A stretch of DNA of 63,108 bases, filler included, from Pseudomonadota bacterium (GCA_043820105.1; 9 parts of 9 records of this genome joined end to end with filler, not necessarily neighbours in it), one strand, 5' to 3'; counted from the whole stretch's first letter, positions 1 to 9,667 are shown. Translations and numbers: made by a program. The notes: a model not told the origin generated them from the letters alone.

Positions 1-91
1 AAATTTATTATAAATTTACTTCCCAAATATCCCTTTTATAAATACTTAATTTTGGCTTCCTTCAATATTTTATTATTTTTACTTTGGTAGG

Positions 92-137
92 TGGACCACT
101 TTTGCGTCCGATTACTGGACCAGTTTATCGTCCGATT
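92..137. repeat. Tandem 22-bp direct repeat (24-bp period), each copy a GGAC-N9-GTCC palindrome; putative operator pair
   Basis: tggaccacttttgcgtccgatt (92-113) vs tggaccagtttatcgtccgatt (116-137), 19/22 identical, directly upstream of the Zn-protein/xis/int run. Confidence 0.6.
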
Positions 138-514
138 TGCAGACACTGCTCAAAGCAATTAAATTGCATTGCTATGAATGTAGTGGCTTCAGTAAAAAAG
201 ATGTTCGTGAATGTAATGGTAGGGCTATCATGTATGATAATGCTTGCCCTTTGCTTCCCTATCGAATGGGAAAAGGTCGACCTAATGTCAAAATAACTAA
301 GGACTATTGCAAGGTTTGTGTTAAGAATAGTCATGAAATATTAAGAGAAGGCTCAGCTTGTAGAGATTGCTCATTAAAAGATTTCCGTCTTGGAAAAAAT
401 CCAAACTATAAAAAACATAAAAAAATACCCAATGTGACTAATAATAATTTATCCCAAAACACCCCTCTGACTAGCAAAAAACAATCAATTTTAATGTTTT
501 TAGAGGAGGATTAA
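137..514 (+). CDS. Cys-rich tandem Zn-binding hypothetical protein (mobile-element associated)
   Basis: Two CxxC...C...C units each ending R(M/L)GK; paralogous to 3890..4180; TTG start uncertain. Confidence 0.7.
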   Translation: MQTLLKAIKLHCYECSGFSKKDVRECNGRAIMYDNACPLLPYRMGKGRPNVKITKDYCKVCVKNSHEILREGSACRDCSLKDFRLGKNPNYKKHKKIPNVTNNNLSQNTPLTSKKQSILMFLEED

Positions 515-518
515 TACT

Positions 519-809
519 ATGTATTCAAAAGCAAAAAGATCATTGAAATTTGAACCCAAATTAGTTAGTTTTAATGAGCAAAAAACAAAAAAGTTCTTTG
601 AAATAAAAATAGATTCCTTTCTTACTGTTCCAGAACTAGCGAAATGGTTGAATCTTAAAGAAAGTGCGATTTACAATCTTGTTTATTATAGACGGATTCC
701 TTTTAATAAGATTGGTCGCAGACTAAGGTTTAACAAGAATGAAGTACAACAGTGGTTAGATGCAAGTGGAGGCAAAGGAAATTATGTATATCAGAAAGAT
801 TCCTACTAA
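519..809 (+). CDS. xis: Excisionase/RDF-like HTH_17 DNA-binding protein
   Basis: FLTVPELAKWLNLKESAIYNLVYYRRIPFNKIGRRLRF motif; GAGGAGG RBS; overlaps integrase start. Confidence 0.85.
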   Translation: MYSKAKRSLKFEPKLVSFNEQKTKKFFEIKIDSFLTVPELAKWLNLKESAIYNLVYYRRIPFNKIGRRLRFNKNEVQQWLDASGGKGNYVYQKDSY

Positions 810-1923
810 GAAAAAAGGTACTATGTACCAATGTGATGTTTGCACTAATCATCAAAGATTTTCAAAAAGATTTTCTAGAAAAGTGGATGCTGAGATGTGG
901 GCTAAGCAACTTGAGTTAAAGAAACATGAAACCGATTTTGGTGAAATAAAGAATAAGAAAATGACTTTTCATGAAATTGCATCAAAATGGATAGCAAAGC
1001 ATGCTGAAATGAAAAAAGCAAAAAGCAGCGTGATCAAAGACAAGCAAATATTAAGGCAATATTTATTTCCCAGATTTGGCAAATTTGATTTTAGAAGCAT
1101 AAGTCCTGAAATGATTGATGATCATATTGTTTATATTAAAGAGATCATACAGCTATCTAATTCCTCAGTTAATCAGCATCTAGCACTTATGAAAACTATT
1201 TTTAATTACGCTATCAAAAGGCGTTATGCTAGATATAATCCCGTTATGGCAGTTGATATGTTGCCTTTAAATCAAAAGGAAGTTGAATGGTGGACCTTAA
1301 AAGATGTTGAAAAGTTTTTGAATTATCAAAAAGATAAGAAGCACTACTTGAGATATTTAGTTGGTGTTAATACTGGACTTAGACCTGGAGAATTGTTTGC
1401 TCTGAAGTGGAGTGCAATTGATTTTAGTAATAGATTGATTTCAATTAAGCGAACATACGAACACAGTACAAACTCCATTAAAGAAACAACAAAAGGTAAA
1501 AAGATTAGACACATTGGGATTAATGAAAGCATTTTCGAACCACTTTTAGAGGCTTTTAAAGCTAATGGAAACAAATATGAACTTGTCTTTGGGAATGAGC
1601 TAGATAGAGCAATTTCACAGACCTCCTTTCTTCAACAATGTTTTTACAAAGACACTATGCGAATTGGTATGAAGAAAATCACTTTTCATGCTTTTTGTAG
1701 ACATACATTTGCTACTAACTATATCATTAATGGAGGTCGAATTGAGGATTTACAAAATATTCTAGGGCACTCTGATTTAAAGACAACTATGAAGTACATT
1801 CATCTTTCAAAAAACTATCTAAGAGACAAGATGGATGTTGTTAATTTTTCACCTACCGAAGATATCCAGTCACAAAATATCATAAATTTAGAAGATGTAA
1901 GAAAGGTAAATCAAGGACTGTAA
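784..1923 (+). CDS. int: Tyrosine integrase (phage/island type)
   Basis: NTGLRPGE, HAFCRHTFAT, LGHS, TMKY catalytic motifs; likely start ATG 784 after AAAGGA, matching the paralogue start MYIR. Confidence 0.93.
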   Translation: MYIRKIPTKKKGTMYQCDVCTNHQRFSKRFSRKVDAEMWAKQLELKKHETDFGEIKNKKMTFHEIASKWIAKHAEMKKAKSSVIKDKQILRQYLFPRFGKFDFRSISPEMIDDHIVYIKEIIQLSNSSVNQHLALMKTIFNYAIKRRYARYNPVMAVDMLPLNQKEVEWWTLKDVEKFLNYQKDKKHYLRYLVGVNTGLRPGELFALKWSAIDFSNRLISIKRTYEHSTNSIKETTKGKKIRHIGINESIFEPLLEAFKANGNKYELVFGNELDRAISQTSFLQQCFYKDTMRIGMKKITFHAFCRHTFATNYIINGGRIEDLQNILGHSDLKTTMKYIHLSKNYLRDKMDVVNFSPTEDIQSQNIINLEDVRKVNQGL

Positions 1924-1930
1924 TGTGAAA

Positions 1931-1993
1931 AATTACGAGTTTTTTACGAGTAAAATCGTAAATAAATCCTTGGTCTCGCTTAAGGTATTGAAA
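1931..1993. promoter_or_regulatory. Putative att arm: TTACGAGT direct repeats plus IHF-like site
   Basis: TTACGAGT at 1933 and 1944 (11-bp period); TTTCAATACCTTA on minus strand 1981-1993, one mismatch to WATCAANNNNTTR; lies between int stop and tRNA 3' end. Confidence 0.55.
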
Positions 1994-2000
1994 TCATTCA

Positions 2001-2072
2001 TGCCCCCAATAGGAATCGAACCTATAGCTGAGGATTAGGAATCCACTGTTTTATCCATTAAACTATGGGGGC
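2001..2072 (-). tRNA. tRNA-Arg(CCT), CCA not encoded
   Basis: GCCCCCA/TGGGGGC acceptor stem, TAGTTTAATGGATAAAAC D arm, GTGGA-TTCCTAA-TCCTC anticodon arm (one T:T mismatch), ATAGG-TTCGATT-CCTAT T arm. Confidence 0.93.
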
Positions 2073-2091
2073 ATTTAAATTTTCGAAAATT

Positions 2092-2126
2092 TATAATCAC
2101 AATTGTTATAAGATTTCAACAAATTA
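2092..2126 (-). promoter_or_regulatory. Putative sigma70 promoter for tRNA-Arg overlapping an IHF-like site
   Basis: Minus strand TTGAAA-N18-TATAAA upstream of 2072; plus strand TTTCAACAAATTA at 2114-2126. Confidence 0.4.
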
Positions 2127-2241
2127 ATTGGGTTTGTTTGCAGCTGCATTAAGACGGAGGATTTCATTTCGTATTTTTAACGAAAAAATGCCGAAAATAA
2201 TAATTCGTTTTTTAGTTATGGCGAAGGATTTTTTGATTTTA

Positions 2242-3375
2242 TTAAATCTGTGATTCTTTTTTAAAGTTGATAGGTATAACATTTTCATCAAACTTCTCTG
2301 GATCTTTTCCAAACTTTACCACATTCATCTTAGAGACAAGGTAATTTTTTTCCAAATGAATATATATTTTTGTCGTTGTTAATTCATGATGGCCAAGAAT
2401 CATTTGAAGATCACTGATATTACCTCCTTCTATAATGTAGTTTGTAGCAAATGTATGGCGGAGATCATGAAAGCAGATCTTTTTAACATTAGCTTTTTCA
2501 ATATCTTTGGTAAATATTTTTTGTGTAAATGTACTCGGAGAAGGAACCCTATCATTTTTATTGCCAAAGACTAATTCTTTTTTCCCAGCGTTTTGATTGT
2601 TAGCTTCTAGTAAAAGGTTATAAATCTCATTGTTAATACCAATGTAACGAATTTTGTGACTCTTGGTTGTATCTTTAATGGAATTTGTACATTGCTGAAA
2701 AGTTCTACAAACAGTTATTATATTGTTCTCAAAATCAATGGTATCCCATTTGAGTGCTAGCAATTCACCTTCTCGCATTCCGGTATTCAGCGCGACCATG
2801 TAAAGTAAAAAGTAATTTGAGTTTCTATTTGCTTCCAGAAATCTGTTTGCTTCGTCAATCTGCCAATAATCAATCTTTTTAGGTTCAACTCTTAGTAAAT
2901 CAACTGAAGTGACAGGATTGTATTTAACATATTTTTTCCGGTTTAAAGCGTAATTAAATATGGTTTTCATGATCGCCAAATGTTGATTTATAGAGGCATT
3001 AGATAGATTAGTATTCTTTTGTAGAATTACTACGTAATCATCAATCATTTCAGAAGTGATTTTACAAACATTAAATTCTCCAAATTCTGGTAAAATATAC
3101 TGTCTAAGCATTTGCTTATCTTTTCTTACACTGCTTTCAGACTTTTTAACTTCTGCATGTTTTGTGATCCATTGATCAGCCAATTCTATAAATTTGAGTT
3201 TTTTACCTAATTCGTACGAATTTTCATAATCTTCATTTTCTTTAGCTAATTTAGCTGCCCAAATAAAAATATCAGCTTTTCTTCGAAATGTATTACAATG
3301 TTTTTTATGGTTTAAGCAAAGTTCTACTTGAAACACTTTTCCAAATTTCTTTGTCATCCGTTCTCTAATATACAT
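2242..3375 (-). CDS. int: Tyrosine integrase (phage/island type), paralogue of 784..1923
   Basis: NTGMREGE, HDLRHTFAT, LGHH, TKIY motifs; shared KDKQxLRQY and NQHLAxMKTIFNYA segments. Confidence 0.95.
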   Translation of the reverse strand: MYIRERMTKKFGKVFQVELCLNHKKHCNTFRRKADIFIWAAKLAKENEDYENSYELGKKLKFIELADQWITKHAEVKKSESSVRKDKQMLRQYILPEFGEFNVCKITSEMIDDYVVILQKNTNLSNASINQHLAIMKTIFNYALNRKKYVKYNPVTSVDLLRVEPKKIDYWQIDEANRFLEANRNSNYFLLYMVALNTGMREGELLALKWDTIDFENNIITVCRTFQQCTNSIKDTTKSHKIRYIGINNEIYNLLLEANNQNAGKKELVFGNKNDRVPSPSTFTQKIFTKDIEKANVKKICFHDLRHTFATNYIIEGGNISDLQMILGHHELTTTKIYIHLEKNYLVSKMNVVKFGKDPEKFDENVIPINFKKESQI

Positions 3376-3637
3376 AGTACTCTCCTTTATTTGCTTTCAA
3401 CCACTTTTCTATTTCCGTATGACGAAATCTTAGTCTACGTCCTATTTTTAGGAATGGAATTTGCCTGTAATGTACTAAATTATATATCGCTTTCTTGCTA
3501 CAATTCAGCCAATGAGCAAGATCATCCACCGTAAGTAGCTTTTCAGCAGTTATGTCAAAGAGCTTTGTTGTTTTACAATATAGAGGCTTAAACTTTTTTA
3601 TATTAAATTTCAATGATCTTTTTCTAAGTTGATACAT
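3365..3637 (-). CDS. xis: Excisionase/RDF-like HTH_17 protein
   Basis: LLTVDDLAHWLNCSKKAIYNLVHYRQIPFLKIGRRLRF; start ATG 3637 preferred (GGGGG RBS; MYQLRKRSLKF parallels MYSKAKRSLKF) over the ORF-track start 3820. Confidence 0.85.
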   Translation of the reverse strand: MYQLRKRSLKFNIKKFKPLYCKTTKLFDITAEKLLTVDDLAHWLNCSKKAIYNLVHYRQIPFLKIGRRLRFRHTEIEKWLKANKGEYYVY

Positions 3638-3889
3638 AGTATAGTATACCCCCTGGCAAGAACTCACCAATTTCACCTCGTTTTCTTGAGCTACAAGGCC
3701 ATTTTCTACCCTTAAATTCATGGTTCCTGCCCTTATTGTTTCTTTAAAATTATATATAGAAATTATACAGGTCGGTTCTCCTGCTTGTAAAAATGACATT
3801 TTTTTTTCATACATAAGCATTCCCTTTATATAAATATCTTTTAAAGCACCGATATATTATTAAAATAAATATCAATTATTCATGCTTTT

Positions 3890-4180
3890 TTACTTTTTAT
3901 AATTGGAATTTTTACCCATTCGAAATCTCCACAGAGCGCAGTCTTCACTTTGGCATTCCCTTACTGCAGATTTATCGCTGCCCATACAATTGAGACACTC
4001 TTGCCTAACTAGCTTTACAGTGGGTCTTCCCTTGCCCATTCTAAACGGGTGTAAAGGGCATGGGTCAAATGCTGTTTCCCCATCACACTTTTTGACATCA
4101 GATAAATTATCCAAGCCAGTGCATTGTATGCAATGACTTCTTATGGATTTTGATGTAGAACAATTCTTCTTTAATACCAT
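3890..4180 (-). CDS. Cys-rich tandem Zn-binding hypothetical protein
   Basis: HCIQCTG...KCDG...CPLHPFRMGKGRP...ECLNCMG...ECQSEDCALWRFRMGKN; GGGAG RBS. Confidence 0.8.
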   Translation of the reverse strand: MVLKKNCSTSKSIRSHCIQCTGLDNLSDVKKCDGETAFDPCPLHPFRMGKGRPTVKLVRQECLNCMGSDKSAVRECQSEDCALWRFRMGKNSNYKK

Positions 4181-4250
4181 ATTAAACTCCCTTATTATAA
4201 TGAAATATTAATAGTGAGTTTTATTAAGACTTGGTAATAAGAATAACGCC

Positions 4251-4264
4251 GGAGTGATCACTCC
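4251..4264. promoter_or_regulatory. Perfect 14-bp palindrome, possible operator
   Basis: GGAGTGATCACTCC in an AT-rich gap between the HTH regulator and the Zn-protein gene. Confidence 0.35.
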
Positions 4265-4303
4265 TTAAATAGGTAAAAGCTTAGTCTAAAATAAACTAAA
4301 TTT

Positions 4304-4795
4304 TTATGAAATTAAACCTCCTTTCTTAATTGTATCCTTGCTTGATTGAATATACTTCTTTTTAAAAATAATTTTTAAGATCTCATTTGCTAACTTTTTA
4401 TCAGATTCAGCTTGGTGATTATACTCTTTCATTGTTTTAAAAATAATATCATGCCTAGAAATTTTAATCCCTTCCTGATTTTGAGTATTACAAGTACAAT
4501 ACTGAAAATAGTTTTTAATATTTTTATCAGATTTGTCATATAACACTTTGAATATAAGCTTTTTAGGTTCTGTATTCAGTACCTTGGCAATATTGAATGC
4601 TGCAAGTAATGAGGGCAATTTTGAACCCGTCATGATTTTAGTTAAATAACTATTGCTTATATTTGCAAGTTTACTAAACTCTTTAAGATTTTTTGCTCTT
4701 AAATGATTATCAGGATTTGTAATAAATTCACTTACCATATATTTTATCCATATCACGGATTCTTTCATTTCATATCTTTGATTTTCTTTTTTCAC
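4304..4795 (-). CDS. XRE-family HTH transcriptional regulator
   Basis: NLKEFSKLANISNSYLTKIMTGSKLPS HTH pattern; GGAGG RBS; divergent from the primase-helicase. Confidence 0.7.
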   Translation of the reverse strand: MKKENQRYEMKESVIWIKYMVSEFITNPDNHLRAKNLKEFSKLANISNSYLTKIMTGSKLPSLLAAFNIAKVLNTEPKKLIFKVLYDKSDKNIKNYFQYCTCNTQNQEGIKISRHDIIFKTMKEYNHQAESDKKLANEILKIIFKKKYIQSSKDTIKKGGLIS

Positions 4796-5001
4796 CGCAT
4801 AACCTCCTTTTTTAGCCCTGTAATCTTATTATATCAGATAATTTCCAATCCGTCAATAGGCTTTACTGAATTAATTAATATAAATATTAAATATTAGTAA
4901 TAATACAATAATATTAGTGATTATGTGGCAAAGGATAATTTCCTTATTGGAAAAAACTACTGCTTTCGTCCTGAATATGATGTTATTTTAATAAATCTAA
5001 A

Positions 5002-7806
5002 ATGATTTTTTTGCTTAAACTTCAAATTGTATTTTTGTATAAAATATATTATGGTTTTAAATTATTATTTCATTTAGAGAAAAGTTTTTCCATGTCCAAT
5101 AAAAATACTCTTCCCCATAGATTAAAATTGATACCAGAAGATTTAGGTAAAATAAAGCCAGAAGGATATTTTACTGAAATACAAATCAAAAAATATAATA
5201 GGGATAATTATAATATATACTATTTTGTAAATGAGGTTAAAGTCCCGCGAGGAATTAGAAATGCAAAAAATATTTATGTTAAAAAAATAAATGCTTTATT
5301 TGTTGATTGTGACTTAAAAGATTATTTAGAAGATAATAAGGTAAATCAGGAAAAGTATCCAGGAGCAACTCTAGGCAAACTAATTGGGAATGGAAAACAA
5401 TACTATTCAAAAAAAGAATTTTTAGATGAAGTTAGAAAATTTCACCTTCAACCTTCGAAAATTGTCGATTCTGGTTATGGAATCCACATTTATTGGCATT
5501 TAAAAAACACACCTAAATTGTTTCCTGTCGATGATTTTGCTTTTTTTCAACAGGCTCTCGCTAATTATTTCAACACTGATCCCGTAAAAGATCCAGTCAG
5601 AGTAATGCGCTACCCAGGAACTTATAATGTAAAATATAATAGAAATAAATTGGTTAAATATATAAATAAAAATTGTGATGAAAACCTTAGATACTCTTAT
5701 GATGATTTTTATAAAATATTCTATAATGAAATAATTGAATTGCAGAATAGTGCAAAGAAAAGAGGCCGACCCAAGAAACCACTTAAGATAGACAATATAA
5801 CTGTTTCTAGTCAATTGCCAAGGAGTTTTGCAAATATCTTAAAGATTAAACCAAAAATATGGAAATTGTTTAAGTGCATTGGTGATAAGTATGCAAACGA
5901 CACAAGCAAGGCTGACTATGCTCTTTCGTGTAAATTAATAACAAACAGTTTCTGTTACGAGGATATCTATTCAATTTTGGCTAATGCCCCAAAAGTATCT
6001 AATAAAGATAGTCGTTATATTGAGAGCTATATTAATAACACAATAAGCAAGGCAGCTGCAGAAATTGACATAGAGATTCCACTTAAAAAACATGGGGTTA
6101 AGCGCAGAGGAGGGTCCGCTGTTGGCCACAGGGTAAATATAGTAACTACCCCACCTATCCTTCGCTGTGTAATTACACGGCCAAGTAGTAGAAATAAAAG
6201 GAAAAAACTTCATGTAATTTCTGCATTCAGAAAGAGAATCAGCTCTGAAGAACTATACATTATCCTAGATAACTTAATCAATAATCCCAAGCCAGGCGCG
6301 TGTGAAATCATTCCAGAGCATCCGGGAAGCGGAAAATCGGCAGCTATTATTAATCTCTGTCTGCAAATAAGACATCAAAACCGCGGAGCTATTATTGTTA
6401 AGGAAAGAAAGGAAGATCTTTATCTGTTAGAAAAAGACCTCAATAACCAAGATCATGTTTTTTGTCTGGTTGGCCATGGAGATGTAATTTGTGAAAAGAA
6501 AATTCTCAATGCTGACAAATTATATTCTCCTTGCAAGGGTTGCAGTATTAAAAGATGTTCTGCTCATCCAACAAAATTTAAAGAACAATATAAATACCCA
6601 ATTCTTCTTATGACAAAGAAACGATTCCAGATAGAAACTTTTTCTGGTAATGGCATGAAGAATTTTATTAACTATATCTCTGGCGGAACAAAGGGTAAAA
6701 GAGAATTTTTGTTCATTGATGAAAATCCAGATTTAATTGCTAATTCTCATTTTTCACAAGAACAAGTTATTAATTTTTTAAGTAAGCTTGGAGATCTCTT
6801 TCATGGAAAGGAAGAATCAAAGATCCCTACTATATTGAACAGTTTAAATAAGCTTAATAGACATATTGATGAATCAAAAAATACAAATACAGGGGTTATT
6901 GAAATTAATCCTCATGAGTTAGAATTATCTTTTGATAAGAAAGAAAAAGACAAATTAATTGAAAAATACAATAATAAAGCAATCGAACTAATCGATAAAT
7001 TAAATATATTGAATGAACATGGTGGATTACTTTTTTCCAAAATAAGAGAATCAGATAATAAAACAATCAATATAGTTTATCCAGACAAGAGATTTTCTCT
7101 AAATCAAGATGAGCTAACAACCTTGCTGTTTGATGGTACAGCCACTTTGGATCCTTCTTATTTAAAGTATGACATTAATCCTGTTGGAAAAATTAAAAGC
7201 TTTAAAAATCTATATTTCCATATACAAGATAAGCAAGTATGTAAATCGAATCTATCTAATCAAAATACGAAAAATCATTATATACCAAAAATATTAAATG
7301 ATATTCGAGCTATTCAGATGGAACAACCAGACAAGAGATTATTCGTAGTTACTACTGTGTCTGATGGAATTGAGGATGAAATTAAAGAAGAGATTAAGGA
7401 ATTAAACCTGAAAAATATTAGAGTAAATCATTATCAAAACTTAAGAGGATCCAATGAATACAGCAAAAGTACTCTAATTTATTTTACTCATATCAATCAA
7501 AAATCAATCGAATATTATATTAGCTATGCTTCAGCGATTTACGGGAGAAATAATATCTTAAAAGAAGATCTTTCTGGAATTGATAAACAAGGTTCTGGTG
7601 GAAGAAGAGGCTTTAAGTCTAGCAAATTAGAAACTATAAGATGTCAGGAAATAGTTACTGATCTTATCCAATGCATTTTTAGAACAAAGCTACGAGTAAC
7701 AGAGGATGAAGATATTCATGTCTATATTGGAATTGAAGATTTAACAATCTTATATTATTTATTTGAATATTTTGAAGATGCCAAAGTATATTCTTGGCAT
7801 CCATAA
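5002..7806 (+). CDS. RepB/AEP-type primase fused to a divergent SF2-like helicase (element replication protein); true start may be 5092
   Basis: N-terminal ALFVDCD, IVDSGYGIHIYW, DPVRVMRYPGTYN primase motifs; C-terminal PGSGKS, FLFIDENP, FDGTA, LRGSNEY helicase-like motifs; KRGRPKK AT-hook-like linker. Confidence 0.8.
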   Translation: MIFLLKLQIVFLYKIYYGFKLLFHLEKSFSMSNKNTLPHRLKLIPEDLGKIKPEGYFTEIQIKKYNRDNYNIYYFVNEVKVPRGIRNAKNIYVKKINALFVDCDLKDYLEDNKVNQEKYPGATLGKLIGNGKQYYSKKEFLDEVRKFHLQPSKIVDSGYGIHIYWHLKNTPKLFPVDDFAFFQQALANYFNTDPVKDPVRVMRYPGTYNVKYNRNKLVKYINKNCDENLRYSYDDFYKIFYNEIIELQNSAKKRGRPKKPLKIDNITVSSQLPRSFANILKIKPKIWKLFKCIGDKYANDTSKADYALSCKLITNSFCYEDIYSILANAPKVSNKDSRYIESYINNTISKAAAEIDIEIPLKKHGVKRRGGSAVGHRVNIVTTPPILRCVITRPSSRNKRKKLHVISAFRKRISSEELYIILDNLINNPKPGACEIIPEHPGSGKSAAIINLCLQIRHQNRGAIIVKERKEDLYLLEKDLNNQDHVFCLVGHGDVICEKKILNADKLYSPCKGCSIKRCSAHPTKFKEQYKYPILLMTKKRFQIETFSGNGMKNFINYISGGTKGKREFLFIDENPDLIANSHFSQEQVINFLSKLGDLFHGKEESKIPTILNSLNKLNRHIDESKNTNTGVIEINPHELELSFDKKEKDKLIEKYNNKAIELIDKLNILNEHGGLLFSKIRESDNKTINIVYPDKRFSLNQDELTTLLFDGTATLDPSYLKYDINPVGKIKSFKNLYFHIQDKQVCKSNLSNQNTKNHYIPKILNDIRAIQMEQPDKRLFVVTTVSDGIEDEIKEEIKELNLKNIRVNHYQNLRGSNEYSKSTLIYFTHINQKSIEYYISYASAIYGRNNILKEDLSGIDKQGSGGRRGFKSSKLETIRCQEIVTDLIQCIFRTKLRVTEDEDIHVYIGIEDLTILYYLFEYFEDAKVYSWHP

Positions 7807-8178
7807 ATTTATCGCATAGCTTATTATCCTATATAAATGAAAAAATTAACATTTTTAAAATATTTTATTACCTAATTGGTGCATTCATTACATCCCCCCT
7901 TAATATAAATTAATAATTCTCACGTGTTCTAATGATTACAGTATGTTATTCGAAATTAGGTGGTATTTACTAGAGAAATAACTAGGGGGATACACATTTT
8001 TTACTGTTGTGAAATGTGTTTTGGATTAATGGGATTTAATAATTCTAATGAATTTTTTGTCATATACTTTGCCAAATAAAAAATCCTTTACGATTTCATT
8101 CAATATATCAAAAAAAACCAAAATAATAATCTAGTAATTCTACTATATTATAAGATTTCTTTAAAATAATTCACAATA

Positions 8179-8194
8179 TGTGAGCAAGATCACT
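8179..8194. promoter_or_regulatory. CRP/FNR-family-like site
   Basis: TGTGA-N6-TCACT, 9/10 match to the CRP consensus; perfect IHF consensus at 8265-8277 just downstream. Confidence 0.35.
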
Positions 8195-8305
8195 TCCTTT
8201 ATATATATATATTTGCTATACTATGTTGTTAAATCAAAAATATGTGTAATATTATTACAATATCTAACTTGTTGATATCATAGCAGGTTATTGCAGGGGG
8301 GGGAG

Positions 8306-9538
8306 ATGAGACTTTTTAATATATCATTCTTTTTATTATCTTTAATTTATATTTTTTGTTTAGGCTGTTTAGTTGTGGAGGAGCCTAGTAGCACTTCTGG
8401 AAATAATAATCCCAATAACAATACTGATGAATATGATAATGGGGATAATGATCAATATTCACCTGATGTTACGGATGAGGAAGTTAGCGCCAACGATTCA
8501 ACAGATGATTATGAAATTGAATATGAAAGTCAAAATATTCTAACTATCAATAATGATGATTATTCTCTTAATGTTTATATTGAAATTGATGATGTTTTAT
8601 TTGATTTATATTACAAGGAGGGGAATCAATACTATCTCAACATTAATGACAGTTATGGAAATAGTCTTTTTACAATATTATATTACCCATATTCCGAATA
8701 TGAAATCGAATCAGACGATCTTCCTTTAGGTTCAGATTTGCATCCAGAAATACAAATTTATGATTCGACATCGACCTTAATACTCTCAAGTTTATTTGAA
8801 ACTACAAATTATCAAGGAGAAAGTGAAGATAGTTTTACGCTTGAAAGTGGATATATAACAGAAATTTATTTGGAGATAGTTGATAATTCCTCTGATGAGG
8901 AAGAAGAAGAAACAGTTGTCGACATAACTTCCCCAACAATATCAACTATAAATCCAGATGATTCTGACACGGATGTATCGATAAATTCTACTATTACTGT
9001 AACTTTCTCAGAAGCAATAGATTCATCAACCGTATATGCTGTTACTGATAGTACTGATTGTTCTGGTACAGTTCAAATATCATCAGACGATTTTTCAACA
9101 TGTATTCAGATGTCTGATGATCCAACTGTCTCAGATGATGGAACAATTTTTACATTTATTCCAGCAAGTGACTTATCTTATGAAACAACTTATAAGGTTA
9201 AGCTCACAATTTATATAGCAGACGAATCAGGTAATTATCTTGAATCAGAATATATAATGGATAATGGTTTTACAACAGGAGTTGAACCTGATACAACTGC
9301 ACCTGAAACAACGCTAGATTTATATCCATTGGATCCAGATAATAGTGCAACATTTGAATTTAGTTCCAATGAAGTAGGATCAACTTTTGAATGTGCAATT
9401 GATACAGAGGCATATGAATCTTGTACAAGTCCAAAAGAATATACATCATTAGATGATGCCAGTCATACATTCTATGTTAGAGCAATTGATTCATCGAACA
9501 ATACTGATGATTCAGCGGCTTCTTATGTAAGCGGCTAG
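8306..9538 (+). CDS. Acidic secreted/lipoprotein with Ig-like (Big_5/SbsA-type) domains, 3'-truncated by IS66
   Basis: Hydrophobic signal ending LGC; DITSPTISTINPDD...ITVTFSEAID and DTTAPETT...HTFYVRAID Ig repeats; last codons run into an IS66 IR. Confidence 0.75.
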   Translation: MRLFNISFFLLSLIYIFCLGCLVVEEPSSTSGNNNPNNNTDEYDNGDNDQYSPDVTDEEVSANDSTDDYEIEYESQNILTINNDDYSLNVYIEIDDVLFDLYYKEGNQYYLNINDSYGNSLFTILYYPYSEYEIESDDLPLGSDLHPEIQIYDSTSTLILSSLFETTNYQGESEDSFTLESGYITEIYLEIVDNSSDEEEEETVVDITSPTISTINPDDSDTDVSINSTITVTFSEAIDSSTVYAVTDSTDCSGTVQISSDDFSTCIQMSDDPTVSDDGTIFTFIPASDLSYETTYKVKLTIYIADESGNYLESEYIMDNGFTTGVEPDTTAPETTLDLYPLDPDNSATFEFSSNEVGSTFECAIDTEAYESCTSPKEYTSLDDASHTFYVRAIDSSNNTDDSAASYVSG

Positions 9539-9667
9539 CAAACCCATCTTGCGCATAAATCTAAAAGCCATATAATACCTTCAATATAAATATAATTAAA
9601 GGATCAATTAATGGAAGTGGAAGCATTGAATAATAATGAAGTCAGGCAACTGGAACAATCAGACGGC
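9527..9667 (+). mobile_element. IS66-family element, left end (partial)
   Basis: GTAAGCGGCTAGCAAACCCATCTT resembles IS66 terminal IRs (GTAAGCG...AACCC..CTT); ORF MEVEALNNNE starts 9611 after AAAGGA; contig breaks here. Confidence 0.65.

Follow-up and report, generated by a model that had tools for sequence, protein, structure and literature searches.

How does one tRNA gene come to have an integrase gene directed at it from each side? Genomic islands land mainly in transfer RNA genes, and almost every island described so far lies on the 3' side of the gene. The locus considered here, in the genome of a Pseudomonadota bacterium (GCA_043820105.1), has a tRNA-Arg(CCT) gene standing between two convergent modules, each composed of a gene for a small Cys-rich protein (Zn), an excisionase-like gene (xis) and a tyrosine integrase gene (int). 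The most probable explanation, to which we give a probability of about 0.8, is that these are two distinct integrative elements, each carrying a module of its own, that have entered the same tRNA gene from opposite sides. The stretch analysed (the window, 63,108 nt) is a chain of contigs with runs of N between them and not one stretch of a genome; the locus is on contig C67, which is 9667 bp in its entirety and occupies positions 1–9667 of the window. The assembly is a draft of 113 contigs and 3.8 Mb, with 32% G+C, an estimated completeness of 92.9% and 2.2% contamination.

Two modules facing one tRNA-Arg gene

Reading along the window, ZnL, xisL and intL are encoded on the + strand, the tRNA on the - strand, and intR, xisR and ZnR on the - strand. 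Open reading frame (ORF) calls and ARAGORN place every one of these genes where the initial annotation, which first described the mirror-image arrangement, had put it. The tRNA-Arg(CCT) gene is the only copy in the assembly, among four tRNA-Arg genes.

142–514 (ORF 137–514), + strand: ZnL, Cys-rich small protein, its native start lost to insertion of an IS21 element
519–809, + strand: xisL, HTH_17 excisionase-like DNA-binding protein (PF12728, E 7.5e-11; phrog_66, 'excisionase and transcriptional regulator'), overlapping the start of intL
784–1923, + strand: intL, tyrosine integrase of the left (3'-side) element (PF00589, E 3.2e-23)
2001–2072 (Rfam RF00005, 67.3 bits) or 2000–2073 (ARAGORN), - strand: tRNA-Arg(CCT); by the repeat borders described below, its 3' half is from the left element and its 5' half from the right element
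2242–3375, - strand: intR, tyrosine integrase of the right (5'-side) element (PF00589, E 1.3e-29), with canonical R...K...HxxR...H...Y
3365–3637, - strand: xisR, HTH_17 excisionase-like protein (PF12728, E 1.5e-12); likely start Met at 3637, longest ORF 3365–3820, homology to xisL spanning 3637–3368
3890–4180, - strand: ZnR, an ORF for a Cys-rich small protein

The modules are paralogous, as had been proposed: IntL and IntR are identical at 184 of 368 residues (50%; E 4e-132), the xis products are 54% identical, and ZnL and ZnR 43–44%. Pfam identifies Phage_integrase in both integrases (82.8 bits for IntL and 103.7 bits for IntR, with a PF00589 cut-off of 27.1) and HTH_17 in both xis products (42.6 bits for xisL and 48 bits for xisR, with a PF12728 cut-off of 27), the excision role of the latter being predicted only. 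Both integrases had been credited with catalytic motifs, and IntR has all the conserved residues. In IntL the catalytic R, K, H and Y are all present, but the HxxR motif reads H-A-F-C-R, with one residue extra; HxxR is found in IntR and in 155 of the 160 homologues surveyed below, and HxxxR in none of the 160.

Displaced tRNA halves and arm motifs at the far ends

Comparison of window positions 1900–2260 with the whole assembly yields two significant matches outside C67, and these correspond to the distal attachment (att) sites that the initial annotation had proposed to locate: a displaced 3' half of the tRNA gene on contig C1 and a displaced 5' half on contig C16. The features that emerge from the comparison are as follows.

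1991–2042, unstranded: left-element direct repeat, comprising 10 bp of 3' flank and the tRNA from position 73 back to the anticodon loop; 51 of 52 positions identical to C1:100441–100492, in the same orientation
2031–2076, unstranded: right-element direct repeat, running from the anticodon loop as far as the tRNA 5' end, together with a few bases upstream; within it 2031–2072 is identical to C16:28709–28668 at 40 of 42 positions
2031–2042, unstranded: the 12 bp common to both repeats, AGGATTAGGAAT, made up of the anticodon loop (2035–2041) and adjoining stem bases; putative crossover region of both integrases
2111–2130, - strand: upstream block, identical to C16:28624–28605 at 19 of 20 positions and colinear with it; TTGAAA on the tRNA strand is a candidate -35 element
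1933–1950, + strand: left-element candidate arm-type sites, TTACGAG-N4-TTACGAG, in the interval from the intL stop to the core; second copy at C1:100613
2173–2197, + strand: candidate arm-type sites of the right element, CGAAAA-N5-CGAAAA in the 17-mer ATTTTTAACGAAAAAAT, between the core and the intR stop; second copy at C16:28860–28844

The one mismatch in the left repeat falls on the discriminator base at 2001, which is A73 in the working gene and G73 in the displaced C1 copy. The C16 segment 28709–28668 represents tRNA positions 1 to about 42, and the working and displaced 5' halves differ at two positions. These differences between the halves of the working gene and their displaced copies fit an arrival of both halves with element attachment sites (attP) of foreign origin. 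In a side-by-side alignment, the match to C1 does not extend beyond 2042 and the match to C16 sets in at 2031, so that the two borders bracket the 7-nt anticodon loop and place the att sites in the anticodon-centred ('A') sublocation; the block of identity ends in the anticodon stem-loop likewise in the related loci L013, L016, L081 and L088. The left element has the attributes of a 3'-fragment island of a tRNA gene (tDNA), namely an intact tDNA, a displaced 3' fragment and an integrase gene adjoining the tRNA, with the direct orientation of the fragments read through a multi-copy IS21 element. For the right element the displaced fragment is the 5' end of the same tDNA.

The arm motifs tie each displaced half to one of the two modules. 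Repeats with an 11-bp period had been noted on both sides of the tRNA, more weakly on the right; they are real, the signal is stronger than was claimed, and each pair is unique in the genome to the two predicted ends of its own element. TTACGAG-N4-TTACGAG occurs exactly twice on both strands of the assembly (C67:1933 and C1:100613), where the lone heptamer occurs 106 times, and the C1 pair is about 125 bp inside the C1 fragment, within the other end of the left element. CGAAAA-N5-CGAAA[AT] also occurs exactly twice (C67:2181 and C16:28852), as does the 17-mer, whose C16 copy is about 140 bp inside the C16 fragment, on the side of the fragment expected for the right element. All eight arm sites run in the same direction when read along their integrase gene, share TT[A/T]CG and are spaced 11 bp apart. 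Genome-wide uniqueness at precisely the predicted partner ends would be hard to get by chance. The integrases are presumed to bind these sites; neither has a match to an arm-binding Pfam domain.

We note that in the far arm of the right element on C16 (L002 10785–10830) TATTTCC also occurs three times in direct orientation (as GGAAATA on the opposite strand) at intervals of about 10–11 bp. These repeats stand between the pair of arm motifs and the displaced copy of the 5' half and may be sites for xis or another accessory protein, and no counterpart was seen in the int-proximal arm. Motifs resembling binding sites for integration host factor (IHF) had been reported on each side of the tRNA. 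The sequence TTTCAANNNNTTA is indeed present at 1981–1993 (- strand) and 2114–2126 (+ strand), but the window has about as many instances of the pattern as chance would give (7, with 6.5 expected). The right copy, which falls in the 2111–2130 block, belongs to the host's own DNA, being present also in the native region upstream of the tRNA piece on C16; IHF sites were dropped for these reasons.

The initial annotation had offered as its second reading a single composite element with two convergent integrases and a tRNA-Arg of its own. Such an element would accommodate the paralogy of the modules and the way they face each other across the tRNA, but it would not leave displaced halves beside element-specific arm motifs: the displaced 3' and 5' halves both end in the anticodon arm, and each lies beside the arm motif of one module only. 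Moreover, the clade-mates of these integrases belong to ordinary islands with one integrase, delimited by a tRNA and a half fragment of it, and we regard a composite element as highly improbable. An inversion between two 3'-side islands was also considered as an origin and rejected, since it cannot yield a 5' half fragment ending in the anticodon loop.

With two separate elements as the preferred explanation, the events at the tRNA gene can be reconstructed. Recombination in the anticodon loop would have allowed the left element to bring a replacement 3' half, displacing the native 3' half to C1:100441–100492, and recombination in the same loop with the opposite polarity would have allowed the right element to bring a replacement 5' half together with the upstream, presumably promoter-containing, region, displacing the native 5' half to C16:28668–28709. 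The working tRNA gene would then now be almost wholly element-derived. The 20-bp block with TTGAAA, kept both in the element-borne DNA and in the native upstream DNA on C16, is a candidate -35 region; a full sigma-70 promoter upstream of the tRNA was dropped because there is no consensus call, and only this conserved block was retained as a candidate.

The same reconstruction suggests how the polarity of insertion might be set. Tyrosine recombinases bind inverted core sites around an overlap of 6–8 bp, and the overlap must match between the recombining partners. Read from its own integrase gene, the core is GAGGA-TTAGGAA-TCCAC for IntL and GTGGA-TTCCTAA-TCCTC for IntR. Because U32 U33 and A37 A38 are self-complementary and the stem strands pair with each other, the two views differ only in the anticodon triplet and one mismatched stem pair, and each integrase would see almost the same quasi-palindromic site. 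If the anticodon loop is the overlap, the central triplet in attP, which needs to match the chromosomal site (attB), would fix the orientation of insertion, and an attP that acquired the other half of the tRNA (with a promoter, in the 5' case) would yield an element that is viable with its polarity reversed. Since nothing but the triplet and one stem base distinguishes the two core sites, the central bases of the core probably determine polarity.

Both polarities in one integrase family

Integrases related to IntL and IntR include both polarities, as the survey of homologues that the initial annotation had called for shows. At E<=1e-20 there are 141 homologues of IntR; the closest ones outside C67 are 34–41% identical, and a profile search of genome contigs places the nearest homologues in Oligoflexia, Bdellovibrionales, Bacteriovoracaceae and 'Deltaproteobacteria' metagenome-assembled genome records. 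An alignment of two sequences used as the query against genome contigs gave 59 pattern matches and no relative, and an alignment of 22 sequences was used instead. The loci surveyed are the best 80 of 578 relatives on genome contigs and the best 80 of 562 on metagenome contigs, with polarity scored from whichever tRNA was closest to the integrase stop in the interval from -110 to +150 bp; the resulting 160 rows include near-duplicates and are not independent.

Antisense tRNA or transfer-messenger RNA with its 3' end facing int, as for IntL: 56 of 160 loci
Sense tRNA with its 5' end facing int, as for IntR: 23 of 160 loci
No tRNA within range: 64 of 160 loci
Cut by a contig end: 17 of 160 loci

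The 5' polarity is thus common in this family, being found at 23 of the 79 tRNA-adjacent loci among the surveyed homologues. Genes homologous to xis are present upstream of int in many of the related loci, with both polarities.

A quick maximum-likelihood tree was constructed from the 80 genome-contig loci together with IntL and IntR, of which 8 rows were dropped for length, leaving 74. IntL and IntR are sisters (Shimodaira–Hasegawa-like approximate likelihood ratio test, SH-aLRT, 99) within a starred clade of six, whose other four members are all 3'-side. Elsewhere in the tree 3'-side and 5'-side rows interleave, and the starred branches force at least 8 changes for the 12 5'-side rows. Related integrases also use the same tRNA-Thr(CGT) arm in opposite polarities (L029, L122 and L129 as against L062 and L139). 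The polarity calls do not depend on gene order only. Displaced 3' halves of 43–45 nt were found for both of the 3'-side clade-mates tested, 9 and 15.6 kb away, and a displaced 5' half reaching the anticodon arm for two of the four 5'-side relatives tested: that of L088 (39 nt, 100% identical) shares contig and strand with the tRNA and lies 14.7 kb upstream, and that of L081, which also uses tRNA-Arg(CCT), is on another contig (59 nt, 98%). The half-tRNA copies, the element-specific arm motifs at both ends and the interleaved polarities together support the first reading of the initial annotation, that of a 5'-side element in the opposite orientation and a symmetric core used both ways. Strict symmetry of the loop was considered as a requirement for 5' polarity and dropped: fully symmetric TT...AA loops are found at 9 of 23 5'-side sites and 16 of 55 3'-side sites, and symmetry is therefore not needed, as it is no commoner at the 5'-side sites.

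In most 5'-side relatives, L045, L088, L160, L173, L081 and L089 being examples, the integrase stop either overlaps the tRNA or is separated from its 5' end by only 4–32 bp (median gap 19 bp); the gap is 169 bp for IntR. So short a gap would imply that the tRNA promoter lies inside the integrase gene, or that the tRNA is co-transcribed.

From these observations we tentatively extend the interpretation to the family, at a confidence somewhat short of even: the integrases may go back and forth often and with ease, exchanging in some cases the 3' half of a tRNA gene and in others its 5' half and promoter, the near-symmetric arm leaving only the attP triplet to set polarity; the present locus would show the two states as sister integrases flanking one tRNA, and the only tRNA-Arg(CCT) gene of this cell, with its promoter, may be mobile DNA throughout.

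Several points weigh against the interpretation of the locus as two elements of opposite polarity. The arm motifs were defined from the same sequences in which they were then located, and are to that extent post hoc. A consensus scan upstream of the tRNA called no promoter, and no displaced fragment was found for the other two of the four 5'-side relatives tested (L045 and L090). The loop counts given above run against a strict version of the symmetry idea. The three tRNA pieces are on three contigs (C67, C1 and C16) of a 113-contig draft, their junctions known from the assembly alone. For the left element, the connection between contigs would be provided by the following feature.

1–141, unstranded: terminal 141 bp of an element of the IS21 family, its end (...TTTGCA) falling at 141; the last 141 bp of C1, a contig end with istA/istB (rve, IstB_IS21), have the identical sequence

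The overlap is in the orientation that makes the C1 and C67 tRNA pieces direct repeats, and the left element would be about 19 kb long if a single IS21 copy bridges the two contigs. The same C1 end, however, overlaps 7 further contig ends by 137–141 bp, which shows the IS21 element to be multi-copy; for this reason the join is plausible and, like the 19-kb size, not proven. C16 and C67 have no end overlap in common; the 5' fragment presumably lies upstream of the tDNA in direct orientation, an arrangement supported indirectly by the side of the fragment on which the right element's arm motif lies. Lastly, the left element may no longer be mobile, in view of the H-A-F-C-R sequence of IntL and the IS21 cut of its operon, where the IS end (...TTTGCA at 141) removes the start of ZnL and the Zn-xis-int operon is left without its upstream region.

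The fragmentation of the assembly also bears on whether the two elements share a cell. If the sample were a mixture of strains, both elements and both polarities would be real, each in a different strain, and the assembler would have joined them across the tRNA. The tRNA pieces are repeated sequences, and the completeness and contamination of the draft leave room for such a join. Two single-occupancy strains would have exactly in common a stretch of only about 55 bp, given the single-nucleotide differences at 2001 and 2057, as against overlaps of 141 bp between contigs, which suggest a final assembly k of 141. In addition, the tRNA sequence matches only C67, C1 and C16 in the assembly, with no singly occupied or empty-site contig. 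Because of the short shared stretch relative to the overlaps, and because no contig carries an alternative junction, a chimera of two strains seems unlikely. A 29-nt word from the C1 host flank gave no match to an empty site in metagenome contigs, and the M90 peptidase beside the C16 fragment, used as a query, was not found in the three nearest genomes (96, 81 and 86% complete). The genomes available for comparison, two of the same order and one of the same class, include few close relatives.

A different question is whether the modules still function. One or both could be dead, in which case the arrangement would be silent on present integrase behaviour. The IS21 cut at ZnL and the HxxxR of IntL point in that direction, as does a third, clearly decayed relative elsewhere in the assembly, beside a tRNA-Met gene. 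The ORFs of both int and both xis genes are intact, as are all four pairs of arm motifs, and IntR has all the catalytic residues. That the locus is such a relic is improbable in our estimation, and decay would bear on activity only and not on how the arrangement arose; present-day activity may be retained. The decayed relative is a 76-aa frame at C9:518–748 corresponding to the C-terminal end of a related integrase (44–54% identity to IntL and IntR), and it adjoins an antisense tRNA-Met(CAT) at 846–919; it looks like the remnant of a third 3'-side element of the same family.

Cargo, known systems and significance

Beyond its module the right element, which is at least 9 kb long, continues to the end of C67 at 9667 with three further predicted genes.

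4304–4795, - strand: HTH_3 (cI/Cro-type) regulator (PF01381, E 1.5e-6; phrog_8 and phrog_3 regulators)
5002–7806, + strand: primase-like replication protein of 934 aa (phrog_1829 DNA primase, E 4.2e-7; weak RepB_primase_C)
8291–9538, + strand: acidic protein of 415 aa with an N-terminal hydrophobic segment, cargo (phrog_15875, of unknown function, E 2.7e-7)

On C16, the side of the fragment away from the element has housekeeping-type genes for an M90 peptidase and a beta-eliminating lyase, and the element side contains small orphan ORFs over 1.5 kb. The C1 DNA inside its fragment is island-like, with genes for a methyltransferase, an HNH protein, a McrB-like/McrC-like pair, a PEGA protein and an AAA protein of the sigma-54 type, and it has an IS21-family element where the contig ends. 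The pair (L001 7267–11240) consists of a 953-aa protein with MrcB_N, a DpnI-type HTH and AAA_5, followed by a McrC-like protein; with the methyltransferase and HNH protein close by, it resembles a modification-dependent restriction system. The IS21-family element, with istA and istB, is at C1:115180–117618 (L001 17482–19919), and its 137–141-bp end, common to C1 and 8 other contig ends, explains many of the breaks in the assembly. The remainder of the window (9668–63108) is composed of contigs C69–C74, C77 and C91 with paired runs of 44 N between them and has no physical linkage to the C67 locus.

The Cys-rich proteins ZnL and ZnR have no Pfam or PHROG family, and 'Zn' is a presumptive name given for the CxxC pattern; each is built of two half-repeats of C-x2-C ... 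C ... [FY]R[ML]GK. A word-index search with ZnR gave no candidate, and only an exhaustive profile search found the family, which is large (1594 representative clusters at E<=1e-3); a Pfam scan of 10 of its members gave none above the cut-off. Beside the 80 integrase homologue loci from genome contigs there is only one weak match to a Cys-rich protein.

Integrases of temperate phages and islands that use the anticodon loop, the 'symmetric sublocation', were reportedly treated by Williams in 2002, as later papers cite that work. IntL and IntR resemble anticodon-loop and lambda-type integrases in having as their core a 7-nt loop with inverted stem flanks, short repeated motifs about 100–150 bp away in both arms and an excisionase-like gene upstream of int. 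They differ from the heterobivalent integrases of the lambda type in that binding of the arm motifs by the integrase N-terminus is here presumed, no arm-binding Pfam domain is matched, and the polarity of one of the two is reversed.

Islands on the 5' side of tRNA genes are already known, as is two-sided occupancy of a tRNA-Arg gene. The Islander catalogue, in the available part of its description, accepts 5' fragments upstream of a tDNA and contains 159 islands of the 5'-fragment kind as against 3760 in which the fragment is 3' (Hudson, Lau & Williams 2015, PMC4383910). Its 5'-fragment islands are like the right element in having a tyrosine integrase, a tRNA regenerated at one of their ends, a displaced 5' fragment that terminates in the anticodon arm, and a 5' half with upstream DNA supplied by the element. 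They make up 159 of 3919 islands in the catalogue as against 23 of 79 tRNA-adjacent loci in the IntL/IntR family, and, unlike what is described for that class in the same part of the paper, the 5'-side integrase here is the sister of the 3'-side integrase at the same gene (PMC4383910). At the arg2A tDNA of Klebsiella pneumoniae, the accessible text of a preprint reports one island upstream and one downstream (10.1101/2020.11.02.365908); there too both sides of one tRNA-Arg gene are occupied by integrase-bearing islands. The upstream islands in Klebsiella have integrases of a separate clade (I.d) and a D-loop sublocation, whereas IntL and IntR are sisters (50%) with the same putative 12-bp crossover region in the anticodon arm (10.1101/2020.11.02.365908). 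In archaea, the pTN3-like plasmid integrases, which the relevant portion of a review calls unique in that domain, use the 5' half of a tRNA gene as attB (PMC8371274); the segment of identity is a tRNA 5' half as in the right element, and kinship to IntR is not implied. The initial annotation thus overrated 5'-side islands as such, these being a catalogued minority (159 of 3919; PMC4383910, in the part noted) with a two-sided precedent in Klebsiella, while the arrangement that it described at this locus is confirmed. A literature search returned no report of sister integrases with opposite polarity at one tRNA and one crossover region, nor of frequent switching of polarity in one family, though Williams 2002 may treat polarity.

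The locus provides a natural matched pair for examining the 3' bias of tRNA islands: two 50%-identical integrases that apparently cross over in the same 12 bp of one tRNA with opposite polarity, with arm sites oriented alike relative to the integrase gene. It raises the testable question of whether the direction of integration at tRNA sites is set by the enzyme or by the three central bases of attP. Software for finding islands should search both sides of a tRNA gene. The locus also indicates that a tRNA gene can be rebuilt wholly from mobile DNA, including, if the upstream region supplied by the right element is indeed a promoter, the sequences that drive its expression. If the tentative view of the family as a whole is true, the orientation of integration would be re-programmable by three bases, and the 3' bias of tRNA islands would reflect selection for the native promoter and not the mechanics of the integrases.

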